NCBI GenBank assembly: GCA_020348985.1
Contig: CP070761.1
Location: 2,781,509-2,845,508 of the forward strand
Reading direction: 5' to 3'
DNA: 64,000 bases
Origin: Candidatus Thorarchaeota archaeon
GTDB lineage: Archaea > Asgardarchaeota > Thorarchaeia > Thorarchaeales > Thorarchaeaceae
Within the stretch, counting starts at the first letter, position 1. Each line of letters starts with the position of its first letter. This document shows positions 50,219 to 60,929 of this stretch, in pieces. A program made the translations under genes and the position numbers. The notes beneath the pieces were generated by a model, which was not told where the DNA came from, searched no databases, and saw only the letters and a list, made by a program, of their open reading frames with translations.

Positions 50219-50797
50219 ATGATGGCGCTTGATTTCGCGAAAGGTATCACTGAGTTCAGATGGCACGGTCGCGGCGGGCAAGGTGTTGTAACATCCAATC
50301 AGATGCTTGGCAAGGCTGCACTTGCCGAGGGAAATTACATTCAGGCTTTTCCAGAGTTTGGACCGGAACGAACCGGAGCCCCCGTTCGAGCCTTCCTGAG
50401 AATGAGCAAGAATCCTATCCAGATATACGCCCAGGTCTATTCACCAGACGTTGTAATCTGTATAGACCCGACGTTGCTGGACGTGGTCGACCCAACAAGC
50501 GGCCTCAAGGAAGACGGCACTCTTGTTGTCAACACCACGATGAGTCCACAGGAGGTTAGGGACAAGTATGGCTTCAAGACTGGTACTGCTGTCACAGTTG
50601 ACGCAACCAGAATTGCATTGGAGGTTATGGGACGACCATTCTACAACATGCCAACGATGGCGGCGGCCATAGAGGCCACGAAGGTCGTCAAGATAGAGAC
50701 CGTCATCGACGCAGTCATGGAGCGATATCCTGGGAAAGTTGGAGAATTGAACAAGACGGCTATTCTGAGAGCCTGTGAGGAGGAGCAAATAGGATGA
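50219..50797 (+). CDS. porC: Pyruvate/2-oxoacid:ferredoxin oxidoreductase gamma subunit
   Basis: EFRWHGRGGQG, FPEFGPERTGAPV. Confidence 0.92.
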   Translation: MMALDFAKGITEFRWHGRGGQGVVTSNQMLGKAALAEGNYIQAFPEFGPERTGAPVRAFLRMSKNPIQIYAQVYSPDVVICIDPTLLDVVDPTSGLKEDGTLVVNTTMSPQEVRDKYGFKTGTAVTVDATRIALEVMGRPFYNMPTMAAAIEATKVVKIETVIDAVMERYPGKVGELNKTAILRACEEEQIG

Positions 50798-51090
50798 GCG
50801 AGAAGTTTGACGAGATTCCCATGGCAGGGAACATAATCAAGCCAGGAAACGCGGAGGAATACAAGACAGGCGGTTGGCGTGCTGAGAGACCACTCCACAC
50901 ACCAGAGACCTGTCTGTGGGTGAAGAACGGTAGCTGCGGAAGATGCTGGATCTATTGCCCTGACATGTCTGTGGTTCTTACCGAGAAGGACGGCAAGCAC
51001 TCCCATCAGTTCAACTATGACTACTGCAAGGGTTGCGGCATCTGTGCAAATGAATGCCCGACTGACAGTATCAGAATGGAGGGCGAATAG
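50794..51090 (+). CDS. porD: Pyruvate/2-oxoacid:ferredoxin oxidoreductase delta subunit
   Basis: TGGWR..RP, C..CWIYCPD, YDYCKGCGICANECP. Confidence 0.92.
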   Translation: MSEKFDEIPMAGNIIKPGNAEEYKTGGWRAERPLHTPETCLWVKNGSCGRCWIYCPDMSVVLTEKDGKHSHQFNYDYCKGCGICANECPTDSIRMEGE

Positions 51091-51091
51091 A

Positions 51092-52267
51092 GTGACAGAG
51101 ATTGAAGGACTAACTGGCGACGCTGCTATTGCACACGCTCTGAAGCAGTGTGATGTAGATGTTCTTGCGATGTATCCAATCACACCTCAGACCATCATTG
51201 TTGAGGACTACGCACGGTTTGTGGCAAACGGCGAAGTAAACACCAAGCTGATTGCAACGGAATCAGAGCATAGCGCCATGTCTGCATGTGTAGGGGCATC
51301 AGCGGCAGGTGCACGAGTTGCCACAGCGACTGCATCAGCGGGTCTTGCTCTGATGTGGGAGATTCTGTACTGTGCAGCCTCCATGCGAATGCCCATCGTA
51401 CTGACTATTGCGAATCGAGCATTGTCGGCACCAATCAACATTCACAATGACTGGAGCGACACCTACGGAGCCAGAGACAGCGGCTTCATCCAGCTGTACT
51501 GTCAGAGCTCTCAGGAGGCATATGACACCACAATCATGGCCTTTCGGATAGGAGAGGACAGCGATGTGCTCCTTCCTGTTATGGTCTGTATTGATGGCTT
51601 CATTCTGAGTCACAACGTGGAGAGAGTTGAGATGCTTCCGGACGAGAAGGTACAGAAGTTTGTCGGAGTTAGGAAGCACTACCAGAATCTAGATCCTGCC
51701 AACCCAATCACGATGGGCCCCTTGGCATTAACAGACTACTACTTCGAGTTCAAGGAACAGCAGGACAGAGCCATCAAGCGAGTCCCGGAGGTCTACAAGA
51801 AAGTGGAGGCCGAGTTCAAGAAGATGACCGGCCGCTCCTATGGTATGTTCGAGGAGTACAAGACTGACGATGCAGACATCATCATCTTCACACACAGCAC
51901 TCCCGGTGGTACAGCAAAGGTTGTTGCTGACGCCCTGAGAGAGAAGGGTGAGAAAGTAGGAGTTCTGCGGCTCAAGATGTTCAGACCGTTTCCTGCGAAA
52001 GAGGTGGCGGAGGCGGTGAAGCATGCAAAGGCTGTGGCAGTCTTCGAGAAGTGCATGTCGTTCGGAGCGGCGGGAAATCCTCTTGCCCTCGAACTTCGGA
52101 CTGCATTGTATGACCAAGACACGAAGCCTATGGTGACCAATTTTGTGATAGGTCTGGGAGGAAGAGATGTCCCGCCGAGTACGCTGGTTGAAGGTCTTGA
52201 GAAGACGAAGGAGTACTTGACAAAAGGAGAGGCTCCTCTCTATGAGACACTGGGGGTGCGGAAATAA
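51092..52267 (+). CDS. porA: Pyruvate/2-oxoacid:ferredoxin oxidoreductase alpha subunit
   Basis: YPITPQT, ESEHSAMS, NRALSAPINIH.D, DGFILSH, GLGGRD. Start GTG 51092. Confidence 0.93.
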   Translation: MTEIEGLTGDAAIAHALKQCDVDVLAMYPITPQTIIVEDYARFVANGEVNTKLIATESEHSAMSACVGASAAGARVATATASAGLALMWEILYCAASMRMPIVLTIANRALSAPINIHNDWSDTYGARDSGFIQLYCQSSQEAYDTTIMAFRIGEDSDVLLPVMVCIDGFILSHNVERVEMLPDEKVQKFVGVRKHYQNLDPANPITMGPLALTDYYFEFKEQQDRAIKRVPEVYKKVEAEFKKMTGRSYGMFEEYKTDDADIIIFTHSTPGGTAKVVADALREKGEKVGVLRLKMFRPFPAKEVAEAVKHAKAVAVFEKCMSFGAAGNPLALELRTALYDQDTKPMVTNFVIGLGGRDVPPSTLVEGLEKTKEYLTKGEAPLYETLGVRK

Positions 52268-53208
52268 TGGCAATGAAGCTCAAAGACATGATTGCAAAGG
52301 ATGAGATTCTCAGCTCCGGTCACAGGATGTGCGCAGGATGCGCCGCGCCGACCGTGGTTAAGCTCATGGGTATGGCTCTGAGAGGACCCACAATAGTCTG
52401 CGAAGCGACTGGATGCCTTGAGGTTGCAACCACCATCTATCCGTATACAGCGTGGAAGATTCCATGGATACACGTGGCATTCGAGAATGCAGCAGCCGTA
52501 GCATCAGGCATAGTCGAGGGAATAGACGCCATGAGGGAGAAAGGCCGCTGGGAACACGAAACGACCGATGTCATCGCAATCGGAGGAGATGGGGGTACCT
52601 TCGACATTGGTTTTGGTGCCATCAGCGGAGCCTTGGAACGAGGTCACAAGTTCGTATATCTCTGCTACGACAATGGCGCCTATCAGAACACAGGCATCCA
52701 GAGATCCGGTGCGACATTTCCAGGCCAAGAGACTACAACGTCCTGGGCAGGCAAGGTTGAGCCGGGCAAAAGACAACGCAAGAAACCGCTGGCAGAGATT
52801 GTTGCGGCCCACAAGATTCCCTACGTTGCCACTACAACCCCATACCATCATAGGGACTTCATCCAGAAGTTCCAGAAGGCATTGGAGGCAGATGGCCCGG
52901 CTTTCATCCATGCATACTCTCCCTGCCCGAGAGGTTGGAGAGTTGAATCATCCAAGAGCATGGAGCTGGCCAAGCTTGCTGTCGAAGTAGGTCTACACCC
53001 ATTGTTTGAGGTCATTGACGGTGAAGAGTTCATCATGTCAGGCCCAAGTAAACGTCTGAAGGAACTCAAGCCTCTTGATGAATACCTGAAACCTCAGGGA
53101 CAGTTCAAGCACCTCTTCACACCTCAATGGGAGTACTTCCGAAAGGAGATTCAGGAGCAAGTCAATAGAGACTGGGAACTTCTGAAAAAGAAGTGTGGAA
53201 TTGAGTAG
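52267..53208 (+). CDS. porB: Pyruvate/2-oxoacid:ferredoxin oxidoreductase beta subunit
   Basis: GHRMCAGC, TGCLEV, GGDGGTFDIG, YDN.AY.NTGIQRS, PCP.GW. Confidence 0.93.
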   Translation: MAMKLKDMIAKDEILSSGHRMCAGCAAPTVVKLMGMALRGPTIVCEATGCLEVATTIYPYTAWKIPWIHVAFENAAAVASGIVEGIDAMREKGRWEHETTDVIAIGGDGGTFDIGFGAISGALERGHKFVYLCYDNGAYQNTGIQRSGATFPGQETTTSWAGKVEPGKRQRKKPLAEIVAAHKIPYVATTTPYHHRDFIQKFQKALEADGPAFIHAYSPCPRGWRVESSKSMELAKLAVEVGLHPLFEVIDGEEFIMSGPSKRLKELKPLDEYLKPQGQFKHLFTPQWEYFRKEIQEQVNRDWELLKKKCGIE

Positions 53209-53276: not shown

Positions 53277-54092
53277 ATGACAGAATACTTTCCGTTTGAC
53301 AAAGACCGACCATTGATCATGGCACACTGGAGCAATCCGTTGGCAGCACCGCAGAATACGCTGGAGGCTTTGAGGAGCGGCGTAGAGGCTGGAGCAGACG
53401 TATTGGAAACGGACTTGAGGTTGACTAAGGACAACGAACTAGTTCTCTTTCATGATGATAACATGCTTCAAACATCCGGAATAGATACCACAGTCCGAGA
53501 CCTTACGCTGGACGAATTCTTGGATACCGACATCTGCAGTGCCACTTCCTATGACGGTGGAGATACCTTCCCTTTCAGTGGATGGGGAGCAAAGGGAGTC
53601 TCCCTTAGAGATGCGCTGAGTGAATTCCCGGAGATGGTCTTCAATCTCGACATGAAGGACAGCTTCAAGGAGGTTCCGGACATTCTTACTGATCTAATCA
53701 GGGAACTGGGCCGAGAGCAATCCGTGATTGTTGCTAGCTATAACGACGCACAGATTGATCGATTTCGTCATCTGATGCCTTCTGTTCCAACGTCTGCGTG
53801 TCCCTCTGAAGTCTCGCGATTTGTCTTTGCTGTCAATATGAGGCTCACGAGAGCGGTTGCCAGAAACCCACAGTATCGAGTCTTCCAAGTTCCACTTGAC
53901 TACGGAAGGATCAAGGTGCTAGACACCAGATTCGTTGAAGCGGCGCACAAACGAAACATAGCTGTACATGCCTGGACCATCAATGATAGAGAGACAATGG
54001 AGCACTTGTTAGATGTAGGTGTTGACGGGATTTTCACCGATGACCCCAAGATGCTAAGAGAGTTGCTCGCGGACAGAGGCTTGTTGACCTAG
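53277..54092 (+). CDS. Glycerophosphodiester phosphodiesterase family protein
   Basis: AH...PQNT, ETDL.LTKD..LV.FHD, WTIND, GVDGIFTD.P. Confidence 0.88.
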   Translation: MTEYFPFDKDRPLIMAHWSNPLAAPQNTLEALRSGVEAGADVLETDLRLTKDNELVLFHDDNMLQTSGIDTTVRDLTLDEFLDTDICSATSYDGGDTFPFSGWGAKGVSLRDALSEFPEMVFNLDMKDSFKEVPDILTDLIRELGREQSVIVASYNDAQIDRFRHLMPSVPTSACPSEVSRFVFAVNMRLTRAVARNPQYRVFQVPLDYGRIKVLDTRFVEAAHKRNIAVHAWTINDRETMEHLLDVGVDGIFTDDPKMLRELLADRGLLT

Positions 54093-54209: not shown

Positions 54210-54344
54210 ATGGCCTGTCCTGAATTTGACGCAGCGGAGAACAAGTGTGGAGTTGACGGTTTCAAATTCTACACGGGCATGCAGAAACCTTGTGAGACCC
54301 CTGGAATTAACAAGGAAAAGTGTCCGCGGTTTGCCATGCAATGA
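54210..54344 (+). CDS. 44-aa four-cysteine small protein (below the ORF-track cutoff)
   Basis: MACPEFDAAENKCGVDGFKFYTGMQKPCETPGINKEKCPRFAMQ, with GAGG 8 nt upstream of the ATG. Confidence 0.55.
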   Translation: MACPEFDAAENKCGVDGFKFYTGMQKPCETPGINKEKCPRFAMQ

Positions 54345-54510: not shown

Positions 54511-54530
54511 TTTATATAAACTAGGTTTAT
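54511..54530 (+). promoter_or_regulatory. TATA box with overlapping inverted repeat (probable ArsR operator); likely leaderless transcript
   Basis: TTTATATA at 54511-54518, about 25 bp before ATG 54540; ATAAAC-tag-GTTTAT at 54516-54530. Confidence 0.55.
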
Positions 54531-54539
54531 CCAAAGACC

Positions 54540-54932
54540 ATGTCTCAGGAGCATGAGGTTCGCCTGGAGAACTTGGAAAAGGTCCACAAAGAGGCCCCTG
54601 AAAAAGCGCCGTCTTGCGCCCCATACACAGCGAGGCGGCAGGTTATCGATGACTTTCTTGATCATTTCCAGGCAGCCGGACCAGACGTGTTCACAGCATC
54701 CATCAGGACTGGTGTTGTTCTCCTTCTTCTAAAACTCGATGCGGCATGCGTCTGCGAGATACAGTGTGCACTGGATGAGCCTCGTCAACCACTGCTTTCA
54801 CATCATTTGCGAGAGATGAAGAAAGCAGGATGGTTGAATAGCGAGAGGCGCGGGAGATGGACCTACTACTCTCTGGAAGATAAGAAACGAGAGTCTATGA
54901 TTCGGCTCATAAAGTTCCTTGGAGCAGAATAA
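54540..54932 (+). CDS. ArsR/SmtB family metalloregulator
   Basis: CVCEI.C.L...QP.LSHHL..MK.AG...SERRGRW.YY. Confidence 0.88.
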   Translation: MSQEHEVRLENLEKVHKEAPEKAPSCAPYTARRQVIDDFLDHFQAAGPDVFTASIRTGVVLLLLKLDAACVCEIQCALDEPRQPLLSHHLREMKKAGWLNSERRGRWTYYSLEDKKRESMIRLIKFLGAE

Positions 54933-54934
54933 CA

Positions 54935-56671
54935 ATGGCAGTAGCATACATGGAACGTTTGGAGCGGTTTCCTGAGACATATGACGAGGCCTTTGACGAA
55001 GTCCTTGAAGGAAGAGGAAACCAAATCAGAGAACGCATTCTTGATATGATCAGGCCAGGAATGCGTGTTCTTGATTTGGGCTGTGGTCCCGGCCTCTTGG
55101 CAATGGAAGCAGCTAAGAAAGGAGCAACAGTATTCGGAGTCGACGCGAATCCGAGGATGATTGGTCTCGCGAAGATTAGATCTGCGTCCATGGAAAAACC
55201 TCCGAACTTCCTTCAAGGTGACATTCTGACCTTAGGAGAAGAAATCGATAGGATTGACATCAATACCGTCGATGCTAGCGACCTTCACCAACAGAAGTTT
55301 GACCTGGTTGTCAGCACATTTCTCTTATCAGAGCTCAAGCCAGCTCATCGCAGTGTCTTCATGCACATTGTCAAGACGATGCTCCGTGATGATGGCTTCT
55401 TTGCAGTCGCCTCTGAGACCCTTCCCGCGTCCAGATCTGATAGGAAGGAATTCTGGAGGAATCGAAAGGAAGTAGAGGTCGAATCCGGAAAGCGCCTTCT
55501 TCCTCCCGTTACTGACTTGGAGAGTCTTGCCACTTCAGTCGGGCTGGTTGTTGATAGCAGTGATAAGTTTGGATCCGAGATCACTTTCATTGTTGGCCGA
55601 AAGAACGACTCTGAAGTTTCCAGTGTGTTTCGAACTAGGTCCAGAGCCTATCTTGGGGCGCGGGCAAGAGCGAGAATATGGATAGACCATACGACAGGAG
55701 GATGGCGGGGCATTCCAATCGAGCCCGGCCTCTACAAGATTGGTGAACCCACACCAGAAAGTCCGGTAATCGTGACTGCAAACTACGAGTTGACCTACTA
55801 CACAGTAATGAGAGCTCTAGACAAAGATCAGATAGATGCGTGGGTGATGGTCTGTGACACCAACGGTATCAACGTTTGGTGTGCGGCCAGAGGAGTCCAC
55901 TTTGATAGCGAAGATGTCATCCACATGATCCGTCTAACAGGTTTGTCAGAGATTGTGAGTCACAGAGAGCTGATCCTGCCACAGCTGGCCGCTGCAGGAA
56001 TGGACCCTACGATGATTCACAGAAGAAGCGGATTCAGAGTACGATATGGCCCCGTTAGAATCCAAGACCTATCGAGATGGTTCGAGCTAGAAAAGCCAAG
56101 GCCCAAGCCAAGAGATATGGCCACAATCACATTTAACTTCAGAGAGAGAATGGAACAGACAGTTGCACATATACCATTCCTTTTTGCGGTCCTTCTGTGG
56201 AAACCAATGTTCGCGATACTTGGGATCCTAACATTGGTCAACGTTGGTCTGTTCGTTGGACTGCCATCAGCTTTTGCCACCCTTTATCCTACTACTATGG
56301 CTATTCTTCTGCTAATTGGAGAATTCCTTCTAGCACTATTCGGGAATGCAATTGTTCTAGGCGTGGTTTTTCCGGTCTTGCCTTCGAAGGGTAATTCATT
56401 CTGGAGAAGAGGAATCGGGTTGGCGGCTATTACAATGCCACTTGCGGCGGCCATCATGCTACTTATCGGTGTTCACTGGACCGAGTTTGTGGTATGGGAG
56501 GCAGCTCAGTTTGTAATGGTCACATCTTTGACAATGGACTGGTCAGGAATGACAACAGTGAGCGACCCGAAGGTAATAAGAAGGGAGTATCCGTATATGA
56601 TATTGACACTCAAGATTGGTGCTGCCTTCATCATCGGATTCAATATACTTGTAGCACTTATGGGATGGTGA
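54935..56671 (+). CDS. Class I SAM methyltransferase fused to an HgcA-like corrinoid domain and TM region
   Basis: VLDLGCGPG in the N-domain; PGLY.IG.P...SPVIVTANY.LT ... DTNGINVWCAARG ... LILPQL ... YGPVR..DL; then 4-5 TM helices. Confidence 0.85.
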   Translation: MAVAYMERLERFPETYDEAFDEVLEGRGNQIRERILDMIRPGMRVLDLGCGPGLLAMEAAKKGATVFGVDANPRMIGLAKIRSASMEKPPNFLQGDILTLGEEIDRIDINTVDASDLHQQKFDLVVSTFLLSELKPAHRSVFMHIVKTMLRDDGFFAVASETLPASRSDRKEFWRNRKEVEVESGKRLLPPVTDLESLATSVGLVVDSSDKFGSEITFIVGRKNDSEVSSVFRTRSRAYLGARARARIWIDHTTGGWRGIPIEPGLYKIGEPTPESPVIVTANYELTYYTVMRALDKDQIDAWVMVCDTNGINVWCAARGVHFDSEDVIHMIRLTGLSEIVSHRELILPQLAAAGMDPTMIHRRSGFRVRYGPVRIQDLSRWFELEKPRPKPRDMATITFNFRERMEQTVAHIPFLFAVLLWKPMFAILGILTLVNVGLFVGLPSAFATLYPTTMAILLLIGEFLLALFGNAIVLGVVFPVLPSKGNSFWRRGIGLAAITMPLAAAIMLLIGVHWTEFVVWEAAQFVMVTSLTMDWSGMTTVSDPKVIRREYPYMILTLKIGAAFIIGFNILVALMGW

Positions 56672-56677
56672 TGTGAA

Positions 56678-57007
56678 GTGACAATCGCGGTAGCAGAAAC
56701 CAAAGAGGGGTTACAGTACAATCCCACGCTGTGCAATCGTTGCGGCATTTGCGTTGAAGTGTGTCCGTTTAATGTCTGGGAAATACCAGAGGAAGGCCCA
56801 GCAATTCCTGCAAGATCAGAGGACTGCACGAATTGCACCGCTTGCGCAAAGAATTGTTTGGGTGGCGCCCTATCTGTAACAAACATGGGCTGTGGCTGCG
56901 TTTGGAACCAGGGGGCACAACTTCAGGGCAAATGTTCGGACACAGTCGTAGGAAATTTCTCGCCACAGTCAGATAGTGAAACCGACAGCACTTCTTGTTG
57001 TGGATAG
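56678..57007 (+). CDS. HgcB-like 2x[4Fe-4S] ferredoxin
   Basis: CNRCGICVEVCP, CTNCTACAKNC, GCGC and C-terminal CCG; directly after the HgcA-like gene. Confidence 0.82.
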   Translation: MTIAVAETKEGLQYNPTLCNRCGICVEVCPFNVWEIPEEGPAIPARSEDCTNCTACAKNCLGGALSVTNMGCGCVWNQGAQLQGKCSDTVVGNFSPQSDSETDSTSCCG

Positions 57008-58821: not shown

Positions 58822-59760
58822 ATGAGCAGGCTTCGCTGGAACATGATTCTAGGAGAATGGGTTATAGTCACGCCTCATAGAGCTGATAGACCGTTTCAAG
58901 ACCCAAGCAGGGACTGCCCTTTCTGTCCAGGAAAGGAAGAAACCTCTGGAGATTGGACCGTGCTGACTTTGGATAACAAGTTCCCATCATTGCATCCGGA
59001 GCCAGGCATTGTGCCTTTGGACGCTAATGTAGTTTTAGAGGCCCCAGCATATGGTGAATGCAAGGTGATAGTCTATTCTCCCAACCATGAAGCACAAATT
59101 GAGAATCTGGATGATGATGAAGTAGGCCGGATTCTTGGTGAATACATACGGGTGTTCAATAGCCTCGATTCGAAGCAGGGGGTAGAATATGTTTACCAAT
59201 TCGAGAACAGAGGCGAAGCAATTGGAGTGAGTCTGAGTCATCCCCACGCTCAAGTGTACGCACTTCCCTTCGTACCACCTCGAATCAAGAGAGAGCTCGG
59301 ACAGGTTGAGAAGTGGCTGAAGGAGGACGGGAGCTGCTTATTCTGTCACATGCTCCAGAAAGAGGTCGAAGCGGGACAAAGAGTCGTCGCTGAAACAGAC
59401 AACTTCGTCACAATCGTTCCGTTTGGTGCAAGACTACCATTTGAGGTGCATATCTATCCAAGAGATCATGTATCCAGTTTGACGGAGCTAGAAGGGGTGC
59501 TGCACGAACTTGCATCTGTGATTAGGGATGTCGTTCAGAGATTCTCGAAACTCTTTGACGAAAACTCGTACGTTATGGCGTTTCATACAAGACCCTCTAA
59601 AGGTGACTTCTCTCACTGGCACTTCCACATAGAGTTCTACCCGCCTTGGCGAGACCGTTCAAGAATCAAGTACCTGGCAGGTCTAGAGACTGGCACCTGG
59701 GTATATACTAATGACACAATCCCCGAGAATGTGGCTCAAGAACTTAGAGAGGCGCTCTAG
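58822..59760 (+). CDS. galT: Galactose-1-phosphate uridylyltransferase
   Basis: CPFCPG, NKFP, FENRG..IGVSL.HPHAQ, KYLAG.E.G. Confidence 0.9.
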   Translation: MSRLRWNMILGEWVIVTPHRADRPFQDPSRDCPFCPGKEETSGDWTVLTLDNKFPSLHPEPGIVPLDANVVLEAPAYGECKVIVYSPNHEAQIENLDDDEVGRILGEYIRVFNSLDSKQGVEYVYQFENRGEAIGVSLSHPHAQVYALPFVPPRIKRELGQVEKWLKEDGSCLFCHMLQKEVEAGQRVVAETDNFVTIVPFGARLPFEVHIYPRDHVSSLTELEGVLHELASVIRDVVQRFSKLFDENSYVMAFHTRPSKGDFSHWHFHIEFYPPWRDRSRIKYLAGLETGTWVYTNDTIPENVAQELREAL

Positions 59761-59762
59761 CT

Positions 59763-60929
59763 ATGCAAGTTCCAGATGGAATGTTGGATGAACTGGAAAG
59801 ACTACTGGAACAGACGACACCTACGTACTTGGTGTCCAGAGCCCCCGGAAGGATTGAAGTCCTGGGGAATCACGTTGACTATAATGGCGGCATTGTTCTT
59901 GCAGCTACAATAAATCGATTTGTATGGTCAGTAGGTGTTCAGACAGAAGAACTCGTTGTGCATTCGATGAACATGAATGAAACCCGCAGAATCCAGAGAG
60001 AAAACATCAGCCCGGTGACAGGTCCGGAGTGGCACAGCTATGCGGAAGGGATCTACTGGGCGTTTAAAAGAAGGAACCATGATGTTCTGAATACGACATC
60101 CGTCATCTCGGGGGACGTTCCAATTGGATCAGGTCTGAGTTCTTCTGCGGCATTTGAGGTCTCCCTTGCGAATCTTGTCGCCAGATTAAGTGGAATCAAT
60201 CTCAATCCCAGAGCAATGGCAATGATTGCCTTTGAAGCTGAGCGATTGTACTGCCAGGTTTCTTGTGGGGTAATGGATCAATTTACGTCACAGGTAGGTA
60301 AACCCGATTCTCTCCTCGGCATCTTCTGTGCGAATCTGCAAGTCAGACACATTCCATGGCCAAATGACGTTGGACTCGTTATCAGCGATTCAGGAGTCTC
60401 GCGTTCTGCGGTAGAATCACTCAATGAGCGAAGGAATGAATGTCAAGCCGCACTACGCCAATTGACAGAAGGAGGATTCGAAATCAATAATCTCTCAGAG
60501 ATAGGACAACAAGAGCTCAGCGATGTTAATGATCTTCTCTCAGAGAGGCTGTTTAAGCGTGTACGTCATGTGGTAGACGAAAACATGAGAGTTGTGCAGG
60601 GGATGACGGCTCTGAGAGAAGGAAACTCGAAGGAATTTGGAAGACTCATGTTCGAGTCCCACGAAAGCTCAAAGAACTTGTACGAGGTGTCTCATGAGAA
60701 TCTTGACTTGCTGGTCAATATGGCACGAGGTCTACCAGGTGTCCTTGGAAGCAGACTTACTGGTGCAGGATTGGGCGGGAGTACGATTACTATGGTGAAG
60801 GCAAGACATCTTGCTGAATTCGTGAAGGAGATCGGGAGTGAATATGAACGAGAGTCTGGTAACCAGCCTTCAGTTTATGCGACTCAAATCCCAGGCGGAA
60901 TCGTCGTCGAGGAGTGTGGCAAGAAATGA
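59763..60929 (+). CDS. galK: Galactokinase-family GHMP kinase
   Basis: APGR....GNHVDY, PIGSGLSSSAA, CGVMDQ, GSRLTGAG.GG. Confidence 0.85.
   Translation: MQVPDGMLDELERLLEQTTPTYLVSRAPGRIEVLGNHVDYNGGIVLAATINRFVWSVGVQTEELVVHSMNMNETRRIQRENISPVTGPEWHSYAEGIYWAFKRRNHDVLNTTSVISGDVPIGSGLSSSAAFEVSLANLVARLSGINLNPRAMAMIAFEAERLYCQVSCGVMDQFTSQVGKPDSLLGIFCANLQVRHIPWPNDVGLVISDSGVSRSAVESLNERRNECQAALRQLTEGGFEINNLSEIGQQELSDVNDLLSERLFKRVRHVVDENMRVVQGMTALREGNSKEFGRLMFESHESSKNLYEVSHENLDLLVNMARGLPGVLGSRLTGAGLGGSTITMVKARHLAEFVKEIGSEYERESGNQPSVYATQIPGGIVVEECGKK

Follow-up and report, generated by a model that had tools for sequence, protein, structure and literature searches.

What might an archaeon do with an S-adenosylmethionine (SAM) methyltransferase that is fused to a relative of HgcA, the corrinoid protein of mercury methylation? 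This question is raised by an operon of three genes (arsR, the fusion gene and a ferredoxin gene) at positions 54540-57007 of a stretch of 64,000 nucleotides from a Candidatus Thorarchaeota genome (assembly GCA_020348985.1, contig CP070761.1, positions 2,781,509 to 2,845,508 of the forward strand), which is called the window below. The answer favoured here, to which a probability of roughly 55% can be given, is that the locus codes for a corrinoid methyl-transfer machine with three parts, which belongs to the CpaM/HgcAB-like family, is placed under an ArsR-type metalloregulator and works through the cycle proposed below. This answer draws on the domain content of the proteins, the conservation of their SAM-binding and cap-helix residues, their family placement and a near-obligate genomic coupling, all of which were observed directly. 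The three genes are co-oriented, with gaps of 2 nt between arsR and the fusion gene and 6 nt between the latter and the ferredoxin gene, and their parts are as follows.

54540-54932, plus strand: arsR open reading frame (ORF), 130 aa, encoding an ArsR/SmtB-family metalloregulator with C70-V-C72-E-I-Q-C76 in the alpha-3 region and Cys26 in the N-terminal arm
54935-56671, plus strand: ORF of the methyltransferase/HgcA-like fusion, 578 aa
54935-55639, plus strand: CpaM-type class I SAM methyltransferase domain, residues 1-235 (from Pfam, NCBIfam, conservation and Foldseek)
55718-56086, plus strand: CFeSP/HgcA-type corrinoid-binding domain, residues ~262-384 (from CdhD, NCBIfam, 2h9a and fold match)
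55871-55894, plus strand: cap helix NVWCAARG, N313-V-W-C316-A-A-R-G320 (from the translation)
56138-56662, plus strand: HgcA-type membrane domain with five long helices, residues 402-576 (from an AlphaFold2 model)
56678-57007, plus strand: ORF of the HgcB-like 2x[4Fe-4S] ferredoxin, 109 aa, GTG start, with C19/22/25/29 and C50/53/56/60

In the cycle that we infer for this machine, the ferredoxin would reduce the cobalt of a bound corrinoid, which the cap-helix cysteine C316 would hold in a 'Cys-on' state. The Co(I) would then be methylated by the SAM that is bound in the fused class I methyltransferase domain, which would yield methyl-Co(III) and S-adenosylhomocysteine (SAH). Finally, the methyl group would be passed at the membrane to an acceptor, for which the leading guess is a thiophilic metal(loid) coming from the Cys-rich tail of the ferredoxin, and the presence of such a species, or of SAH, would lead ArsR to release the operon from repression.

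Residues 4-177 of the fusion protein are a class I SAM methyltransferase (Methyltransf_25, 51 bits). The Pfam families Methyltransf_25, 23 and 31 score 50-51 bits against a cut-off of 27, and both the GxGxG of motif I and the acidic residue of motif II are present. Among NCBIfam families, the best for these residues is CpaM (NF043040), with 116.7 bits against 45 for the runner-up. Across 73 fusions, which share only about 30% identity, there is no variation in the SAM-binding glycines (G49, G51, G53), in D123 or in the N-terminal lid residues M6, L9, E10, P13 and Y16, and D70 is conserved in at least 90%. In addition, the N-terminal signature M-x-x-L-E-x-x-P-x-x-Y-D, together with motif I, is common to stand-alone and fused CpaMs and is not found in an unrelated methyltransferase. 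Judged by its sequence, by this signature and by its fusion to an HgcA-type corrinoid protein, the N-terminal domain is a CpaM, if a divergent one. The possibility that it resembles ArsM was ruled out, as the domain is without As-binding cysteines and a real ArsM is found elsewhere in the genome. A clade-specific insertion at residues ~101-120 (55235-55294), with a low predicted local distance difference test score (pLDDT) of 56-69, is absent from the aligned stand-alone CpaMs.

The best families for residues 253-564 are HgcAB_like (NF043039, 207 bits) and HgcA (NF040863, 194 bits). Pfam CdhD covers residues 262-354, and there is a sequence match (E 3e-14) to the large subunit of the corrinoid iron-sulfur protein (CFeSP; PDB 2h9a); a sequence search of solved structures returned only CFeSP and generic methyltransferases, with no HgcA-family entry. 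In the cap helix, N313, W315, C316, A318 and G320 are invariant across the 73 fusions and R319 is kept in at least 90%. With these 73 homologues as input, AlphaFold2 models the whole three-domain chain with a pLDDT of 90.9 and a predicted template-modelling score (pTM) of 0.84. DSSP assigns helices to residues 402-442, 444-481, 489-511, 515-539 and 545-576 of the model (pLDDT mostly above 88), and this region is aligned with the membrane-spanning portion of canonical HgcA. The best fold match found by Foldseek in the PDB is the 2020 integrative model of HgcAB (9a0b_A), with small SAM methyltransferases next. From the homology with HgcA, C316, which is invariant and accompanied by the five model helices, should be the axial cobalt ligand.

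The contact between the two halves of the chain was modelled separately, as a complex of the methyltransferase (residues 1-235) and the HgcA-like part (residues 250-578) with SAM included. This prediction scored 0.54, while the best of three controls scored 0.00; at least 87% of the contacts agree between runs and the partner has a pLDDT of at least 80. The support is weak: 58 of 80 solved complexes reach the score mark, as do 2 of 110 mismatched pairs, and only 7 of those complexes and both of the passing mismatches do so at 0.60 or below.

The ferredoxin, which matches Fer4 families, has two CxxCxxCxxxC motifs, a GCGC(V)WN motif with GCGC at residues 71-74 (C72, C74), a further cysteine at C86 and a terminal C107-C108-G. 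It shares with HgcB its adjacency to the corrinoid protein gene and a C-terminal Cys-Cys. Nevertheless, it scores 46.6 bits against the HgcB profile (NF040864), whose cut-off is 99, and carries CTNCTA instead of C(M/I)ECGA. A ferredoxin gene lies directly downstream in all 22 of the related Asgard loci in which the methyltransferase and the HgcA-like protein are fused and the ferredoxin is separate; GCGC is present in 21, and most end in CC. These loci, with two triple fusions that also include the ferredoxin, make up the 24 fused-type loci that were examined.

From this domain content, the original prediction had read the corrinoid part as HgcA-like and the fusion as a Rosetta-stone link that supplies methyl groups from SAM to the corrinoid, for mercury or another metal(loid). 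Every detail that it listed (arsR, the 578-aa fusion, the ferredoxin, the gaps and the motifs) is present in the ORFs and translations, and the Asgard lineage that it named agrees with nearest homologues named Thorarchaeota. The scoring and the tree that it proposed as checks speak differently on identity. The fusion scores 193.8 bits with the HgcA profile, for which the cut-off is 275 and canonical controls (P0128, P0245, P0159) reach 374-446, and the ferredoxin likewise stays below the HgcB cut-off. The CpaM profile, also among these checks, leads all other families by more than 70 bits, although the score remains under the cut-off of 180. Moreover, Hg-MATE recognises six cap-helix motifs for HgcA, and NVWCAARG is none of these; in HgcB, it requires C(M/I)ECGA (PMC10087281). 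The change from GK to RG, which had been taken as a possible sign of a different acceptor, is real, but it is a trait of the whole clade, with R319 in at least 90% and G320 invariant, and GK is absent from every non-canonical form.

Phylogeny gives the same placement. A homologue search with the HgcA-like part among 1.8 billion representatives returned 1107 matches. In a quick tree of 136 rows, proteins with a GK cap helix form one clade (SH-like approximate likelihood ratio test, SH-aLRT, 100), and in a careful tree of 78 rows this clade has a support of 100/100 and a stem of 0.77, with the fusion protein outside. The latter falls in a Thorarchaeota clade of nine rows (100/100) within an Asgard clade of 24 rows that share its architecture (95/92). 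Anchors scored against the NCBIfam cut-offs agree with this division: the HgcA cut-off is exceeded by three GK proteins, that of HgcAB_like by four proteins with a fused ferredoxin, and those of HgcAB_like and CpaM together by two triple fusions. The fusion itself has 207 bits against the HgcAB_like cut-off of 285, which rises to 247 if the stop codon is read through into the ferredoxin; it lacks the fused C-terminal ferredoxin of that family, its ferredoxin being a separate gene, and has the non-GK cap helix and the CpaM partner, here fused. On this sequence evidence, the corrinoid part belongs to the HgcAB-like sister family and not to canonical HgcA.

These results bear on a rival in which the locus is a true mercury methylase, that is, a functional HgcAB orthologue with its own SAM-loading domain that converts Hg(II) into methylmercury. 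The cobalt-ligating Cys and the N-x-W-C core are kept, as are the five-helix HgcA-like membrane domain and an HgcB-like ferredoxin, encoded separately and with Cys-Cys at its C-terminus, and SAM is the donor of HgcAB (PMC11588087). In addition, with a single long CdhE outgroup, the careful tree places the Asgard fused clade as sister to canonical HgcA (93/89). Nevertheless, this sister relationship is fragile: a topology that unites all non-GK forms is only 1.8 log-likelihood units worse and is not rejected by the approximately unbiased (AU) test (p 0.435), and no claim is therefore made on the Asgard clade as the sister of HgcA; the tree of Lin et al. 2023 keeps all non-GK forms together (PMC10083202). 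[quoted passage not shown] Mercury is thus possible but disfavoured as the acceptor, and the rival as a whole seems quite improbable.

The presence of the methyltransferase, in turn, is a property of the family to which the fusion belongs. The ORFs of 80 HgcAB-like loci, from named species-representative genomes of more than 20 phyla of Bacteria and Archaea, were scored with a CpaM profile, for which matches gave 160-248 bits and an unrelated control methyltransferase 33 bits, with the following outcome.

CpaM-type gene directly upstream: 65 loci of 80
CpaM-type gene fused: 8 loci of 80
CpaM-type gene within 2 kb on the same strand: 2 loci of 80
CpaM-type gene not found: 2 loci of 80
Not assessable because of a contig end: 3 loci of 80

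By these profile matches, the SAM methyltransferase appears to be a near-obligate third subunit of the sister family, adjacent or fused in 75 of the 77 assessable loci. Canonical HgcA differs, as the original prediction had stated: this methyltransferase domain was matched by none of the 82 GK representatives, five of which have N-terminal extensions without a methyltransferase Pfam match (one is a GNAT, the others unassigned), and two canonical hgcAB loci that were checked have only hgcB adjacent and no methyltransferase. Thus, the link between a SAM methyltransferase and a corrinoid protein exists as proposed, but it concerns the HgcAB-like/CpaM sister family and not canonical HgcAB, and far from being singular the fusion is widespread in Asgard archaea, with CpaM as a near-universal partner of the whole non-GK family.

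Fusions of the methyltransferase occur in several separate lineages of the tree and also in Bacteria (for instance, an Anaerolineae protein), and the non-canonical forms are all without GK. A second, unfused locus in the same genome (G000:C1:1074380-1076165, minus strand; L002 1244-3098) has a 220-aa CpaM-like methyltransferase (154.5 bits) that overlaps by 4 nt the gene of a 320-aa HgcA-like protein with the cap helix NVWCGSRG, followed by a 75-aa ferredoxin without a Cys tail and a 271-aa helix-turn-helix-like protein. Triple fusions of methyltransferase, corrinoid protein and ferredoxin are found at 643-655 aa in sister genera of the same archaeal family (L138 888-2819, minus strand; L139 1452-3419, plus strand) and also in L046 and L047, with an overall range of 601-655 aa. 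The separate, partly fused and fully fused states therefore all occur within one archaeal family.

This coupling is relevant to a second rival, in which the methyltransferase domain is a repair device that reductively remethylates oxidised cob(II)alamin with SAM, like the activation domain of MetH, and the methyl groups for catalysis would be supplied by a different donor, for instance a methyl-pterin of the Wood-Ljungdahl pathway. SAM-dependent reactivation of a corrinoid is established for MetH. The genome also encodes a homologue of CFeSP, the gamma subunit of acetyl-CoA decarbonylase/synthase (ACDS; L003), so corrinoid C1 chemistry is present, and a ferredoxin that could serve for low-potential reduction is always found in fused loci. 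By contrast, no gene for a pterin-binding methyltransferase or another donor recurs in the 24 fused-type loci. The one-to-one coupling of CpaM and its repeated fusion across more than 20 phyla also fit a stoichiometric subunit better than a repair factor, and canonical HgcAB uses SAM catalytically (PMC11588087). Repair is, as a consequence, an improbable role, though a trace less so than mercury methylation.

In a third rival, the two halves of the fusion would carry out separate chemistries: the corrinoid module would be a reductase, for instance in halomethane dehalogenation, or an acceptor of methyl or halomethyl groups, and the methyltransferase would act on a separate molecule. Halomethane dehalogenation by organisms that carry HgcAB is reported in a 2026 preprint (bioRxiv 10.64898/2026.04.26.720869). 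The methyltransferase domain has no recognisable acceptor-binding extension, which would suit this rival, and one triple-fusion locus adjoins a gene of the URO-D family, a Pfam family that includes methylcobamide:coenzyme M methyltransferases. However, the repeated independent fusions and the 4-nt overlaps point to tight physical coupling, the invariant N-terminal lid is co-conserved with the cap helix, and neither dehalogenase-type genes nor other acceptor genes recur in fused loci. Such a division of labour is accordingly as doubtful as a mercury methylase. The URO-D-family gene is a single case, divergent beside the triple fusion on a Ranarchaeia contig (L027 384-1382, minus strand).

In Asgard archaea, the fused architecture is present in more than 100 clusters at 90% identity, and the fusion is thus not an assembly artefact. 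The named clusters are Thor-, Loki-, Hod-, Hermod-, Odin- or Sif-archaeal, and are annotated as "methyltransferase domain-containing protein" or CpaM. The fusion protein is matched (E 1e-20) in 139 of the 301 sampled genomes of the phylum, and in 46 of the 90 of high quality. The HgcA model finds the family in 138 of the 301 genomes, with only one above its cut-off, and published 'Asgard methylators' may therefore be largely of the paralogous type. This lone HgcA (436 bits; L134 = G025:C110) comes from a genome with ~9% contamination.

The regulator and the genes near related fusions suggest what the acceptor might be. The ArsR of the operon matches Pfam HTH_5 and barely passes NCBIfam NF033788 (55.2 bits against 55), and it has the winged helix-turn-helix and the alpha-3 Cys site (CVCEIQC, residues 70-76) of the ArsR/SmtB family. 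CVCE in alpha-3 is common to the ArsRs beside other Asgard fusions, and an ArsR with this motif stands beside about half of the Asgard loci. Control by ArsR, which had been predicted for the operon, is in keeping with the arsR gene at its head but is not general: such a gene is adjacent or divergent in ~10 of the 22 loci, that is, frequent and optional. In three loci of one genus, a divergent arsR is joined by a gene for an ACR3-like arsenite pump 11 nt upstream of the fusion (L035 4147-5241, minus strand, 257 bits against a cut-off of 283; likewise in L039 and L040). Besides these and the ferredoxin, no recurrent neighbour was found in the 24 fused-type loci. In Pseudodesulfovibrio mercurii ND132, hgcAB has an ArsR upstream for which a response to arsenic and SAH is published (bioRxiv 10.1101/2022.10.17.512643). 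Together, the ArsR and ACR3 links and the ND132 response point to a thiophilic metal(loid) as the acceptor.

Several points weigh against the favoured reading of a SAM-loaded methyl-transfer machine. To our knowledge, no class I methyltransferase methylates a protein-bound corrinoid, and the CpaM/HgcAB-like family is known from sequence. The three equivalog cut-offs are missed (CpaM 116.7/180, HgcAB_like 207/285, HgcA 194/275), including that of the very family to which the methyltransferase domain is assigned here. The interdomain docking score is weak. As for the acceptor, ArsR is absent from about half of the fused loci examined (n=22), and the ACR3 link comes from kin within a single genus and is probably one event. 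In addition, a genuine ArsM (318 bits) and two ACR3 genes are encoded elsewhere in the same genome, so an arsenic role of the operon would be redundant. Finally, in canonical HgcAB, SAM methylates Co(I) and there is a Co-S(Cys) bond (PMC11588087); as this occurs without a methyltransferase domain, a dedicated loader is not chemically required.

A bolder proposal is that the Asgard clade of fusions is the closest living relative of HgcA and keeps an ancestral SAM-loading subunit that canonical HgcA lost, its native job being the corrinoid-dependent methylation of a soft metal(loid), for instance As(III) or Sb(III), as the ArsR and ACR3 links suggest. This is unlikely, though less so than the rivals above. 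If the soft metal(loid) reading were true, archaea would have a second way, without ArsM, to make organo-metal(loid)s, and there would be a hint of the task that HgcAB had before mercury. More generally, the purpose for which HgcAB evolved and the source of its cobalt-bound methyl were open for a decade, with SAM shown as the donor only in 2024. The locus and its relatives are independent genomic evidence for SAM loading as a trait of the whole family. There is also a caution for hgcA surveys, since "hgcA-positive" Asgard genomes are almost all of the paralogous type (1/301 above the cut-off). In practice, the fused single chain is a convenient biochemical target, and there are cultured carriers of the related form, namely Pyrococcus furiosus and Promethearchaeum syntrophicum.

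The methyltransferase partner seems to have gone without comment in the literature. No mention of a near-obligate SAM methyltransferase subunit was found in the mercury literature, papers on fused HgcAB are silent on a methyltransferase, and CpaM does not appear in the preprint of Haft and Gwadz. None of the papers that could be searched contains 'corrinoid protein-associated methyltransferase', and as a word CpaM returns only unrelated acronyms. In the case of Lin et al. 2023, the first 327 alignment columns were trimmed, which would hide an N-terminal methyltransferase domain (PMC10083202). As far as could be found, the CpaM/HgcAB-like family was named by NCBI curators and is apparently unpublished, and the fused Asgard form is a new variant, below the cut-offs, of this database-known and uncharacterised family.

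Upstream of arsR, one further element can be proposed, which stops 5 nt before the start codon.

54511-54535, plus strand: predicted archaeal promoter/operator, with a TTTATATA box and the imperfect inverted repeat TTTATATAAAC / GTTTATCCAAA

This element is a candidate promoter and operator by its sequence. A scan for sigma-70 promoters and terminators gave chance level only, with a model that is ill-suited to archaea. A 44-aa ORF with four cysteines lies 5′ of arsR (54210-54344, plus strand) and was not seen upstream of a related operon (L024). Beyond it are a gene for a GDPD glycerophosphodiester phosphodiesterase (53277-54092, Pfam GDPD) and, within 50219-53208, four ORFs that were read by eye as a 2-oxoacid:ferredoxin oxidoreductase set. 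Downstream, ORFs at 58822-60929 were read by eye as galactose-1-phosphate uridylyltransferase and galactokinase. These flanking genes look unrelated to the operon.

Finally, the locus can be compared with known systems. With ArsM and the ars operons it shares an ArsR-type regulator with CVC, SAM-dependent methylation and, in one genus, an adjacent ACR3-like pump, but the only Cys in its methyltransferase domain is that of GCGPG, and the As(III)-binding cysteines of ArsM are missing. In MetH, too, donor and acceptor sites are on one chain, and the cob(I)/(II)alamin bound to the protein is methylated by SAM, but the activation domain serves for repair only, and its fold is unrelated to that of the methyltransferase domain described here. 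CFeSP (AcsC/CdhE) of the Wood-Ljungdahl pathway has a homologous corrinoid domain (2h9a, E 3e-14), the cobalt of which is loaded by a separate methyltransferase and reductively activated by Fe-S clusters. However, its donor is a methyl-pterin on a TIM-barrel methyltransferase, and CFeSP is soluble and without a Cys axial ligand, whereas the fusion has a Rossmann-fold SAM enzyme as its donor domain and is predicted to be membrane-anchored.

HgcA/HgcB of P. mercurii ND132 (NF040863/NF040864) have the same CFeSP-type corrinoid domain, Cys cap helix and five-helix membrane domain, the same adjacent 2x[4Fe-4S] ferredoxin with a Cys-rich C-terminus and, in some lineages, an ArsR-type gene upstream. 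SAM is their demonstrated methyl source and would be that of the fusion. In contrast to them, the fusion adds an N-terminal methyltransferase domain, its cap helix ends in RG and not GK, and its ferredoxin lacks C(M/I)ECGA. The HgcAB-like proteins with CpaM (NF043039/NF043040; for instance, the fused HgcAB of P. furiosus and WP_147663822.1 of P. syntrophicum) share the non-GK cap helix, the coupling to CpaM and the three modules. Here, nevertheless, the fusion partner is swapped, so that the methyltransferase and the corrinoid protein are joined and the ferredoxin is free; this ferredoxin keeps a long Cys tail, and the membrane domain aligns better with that of canonical HgcA.

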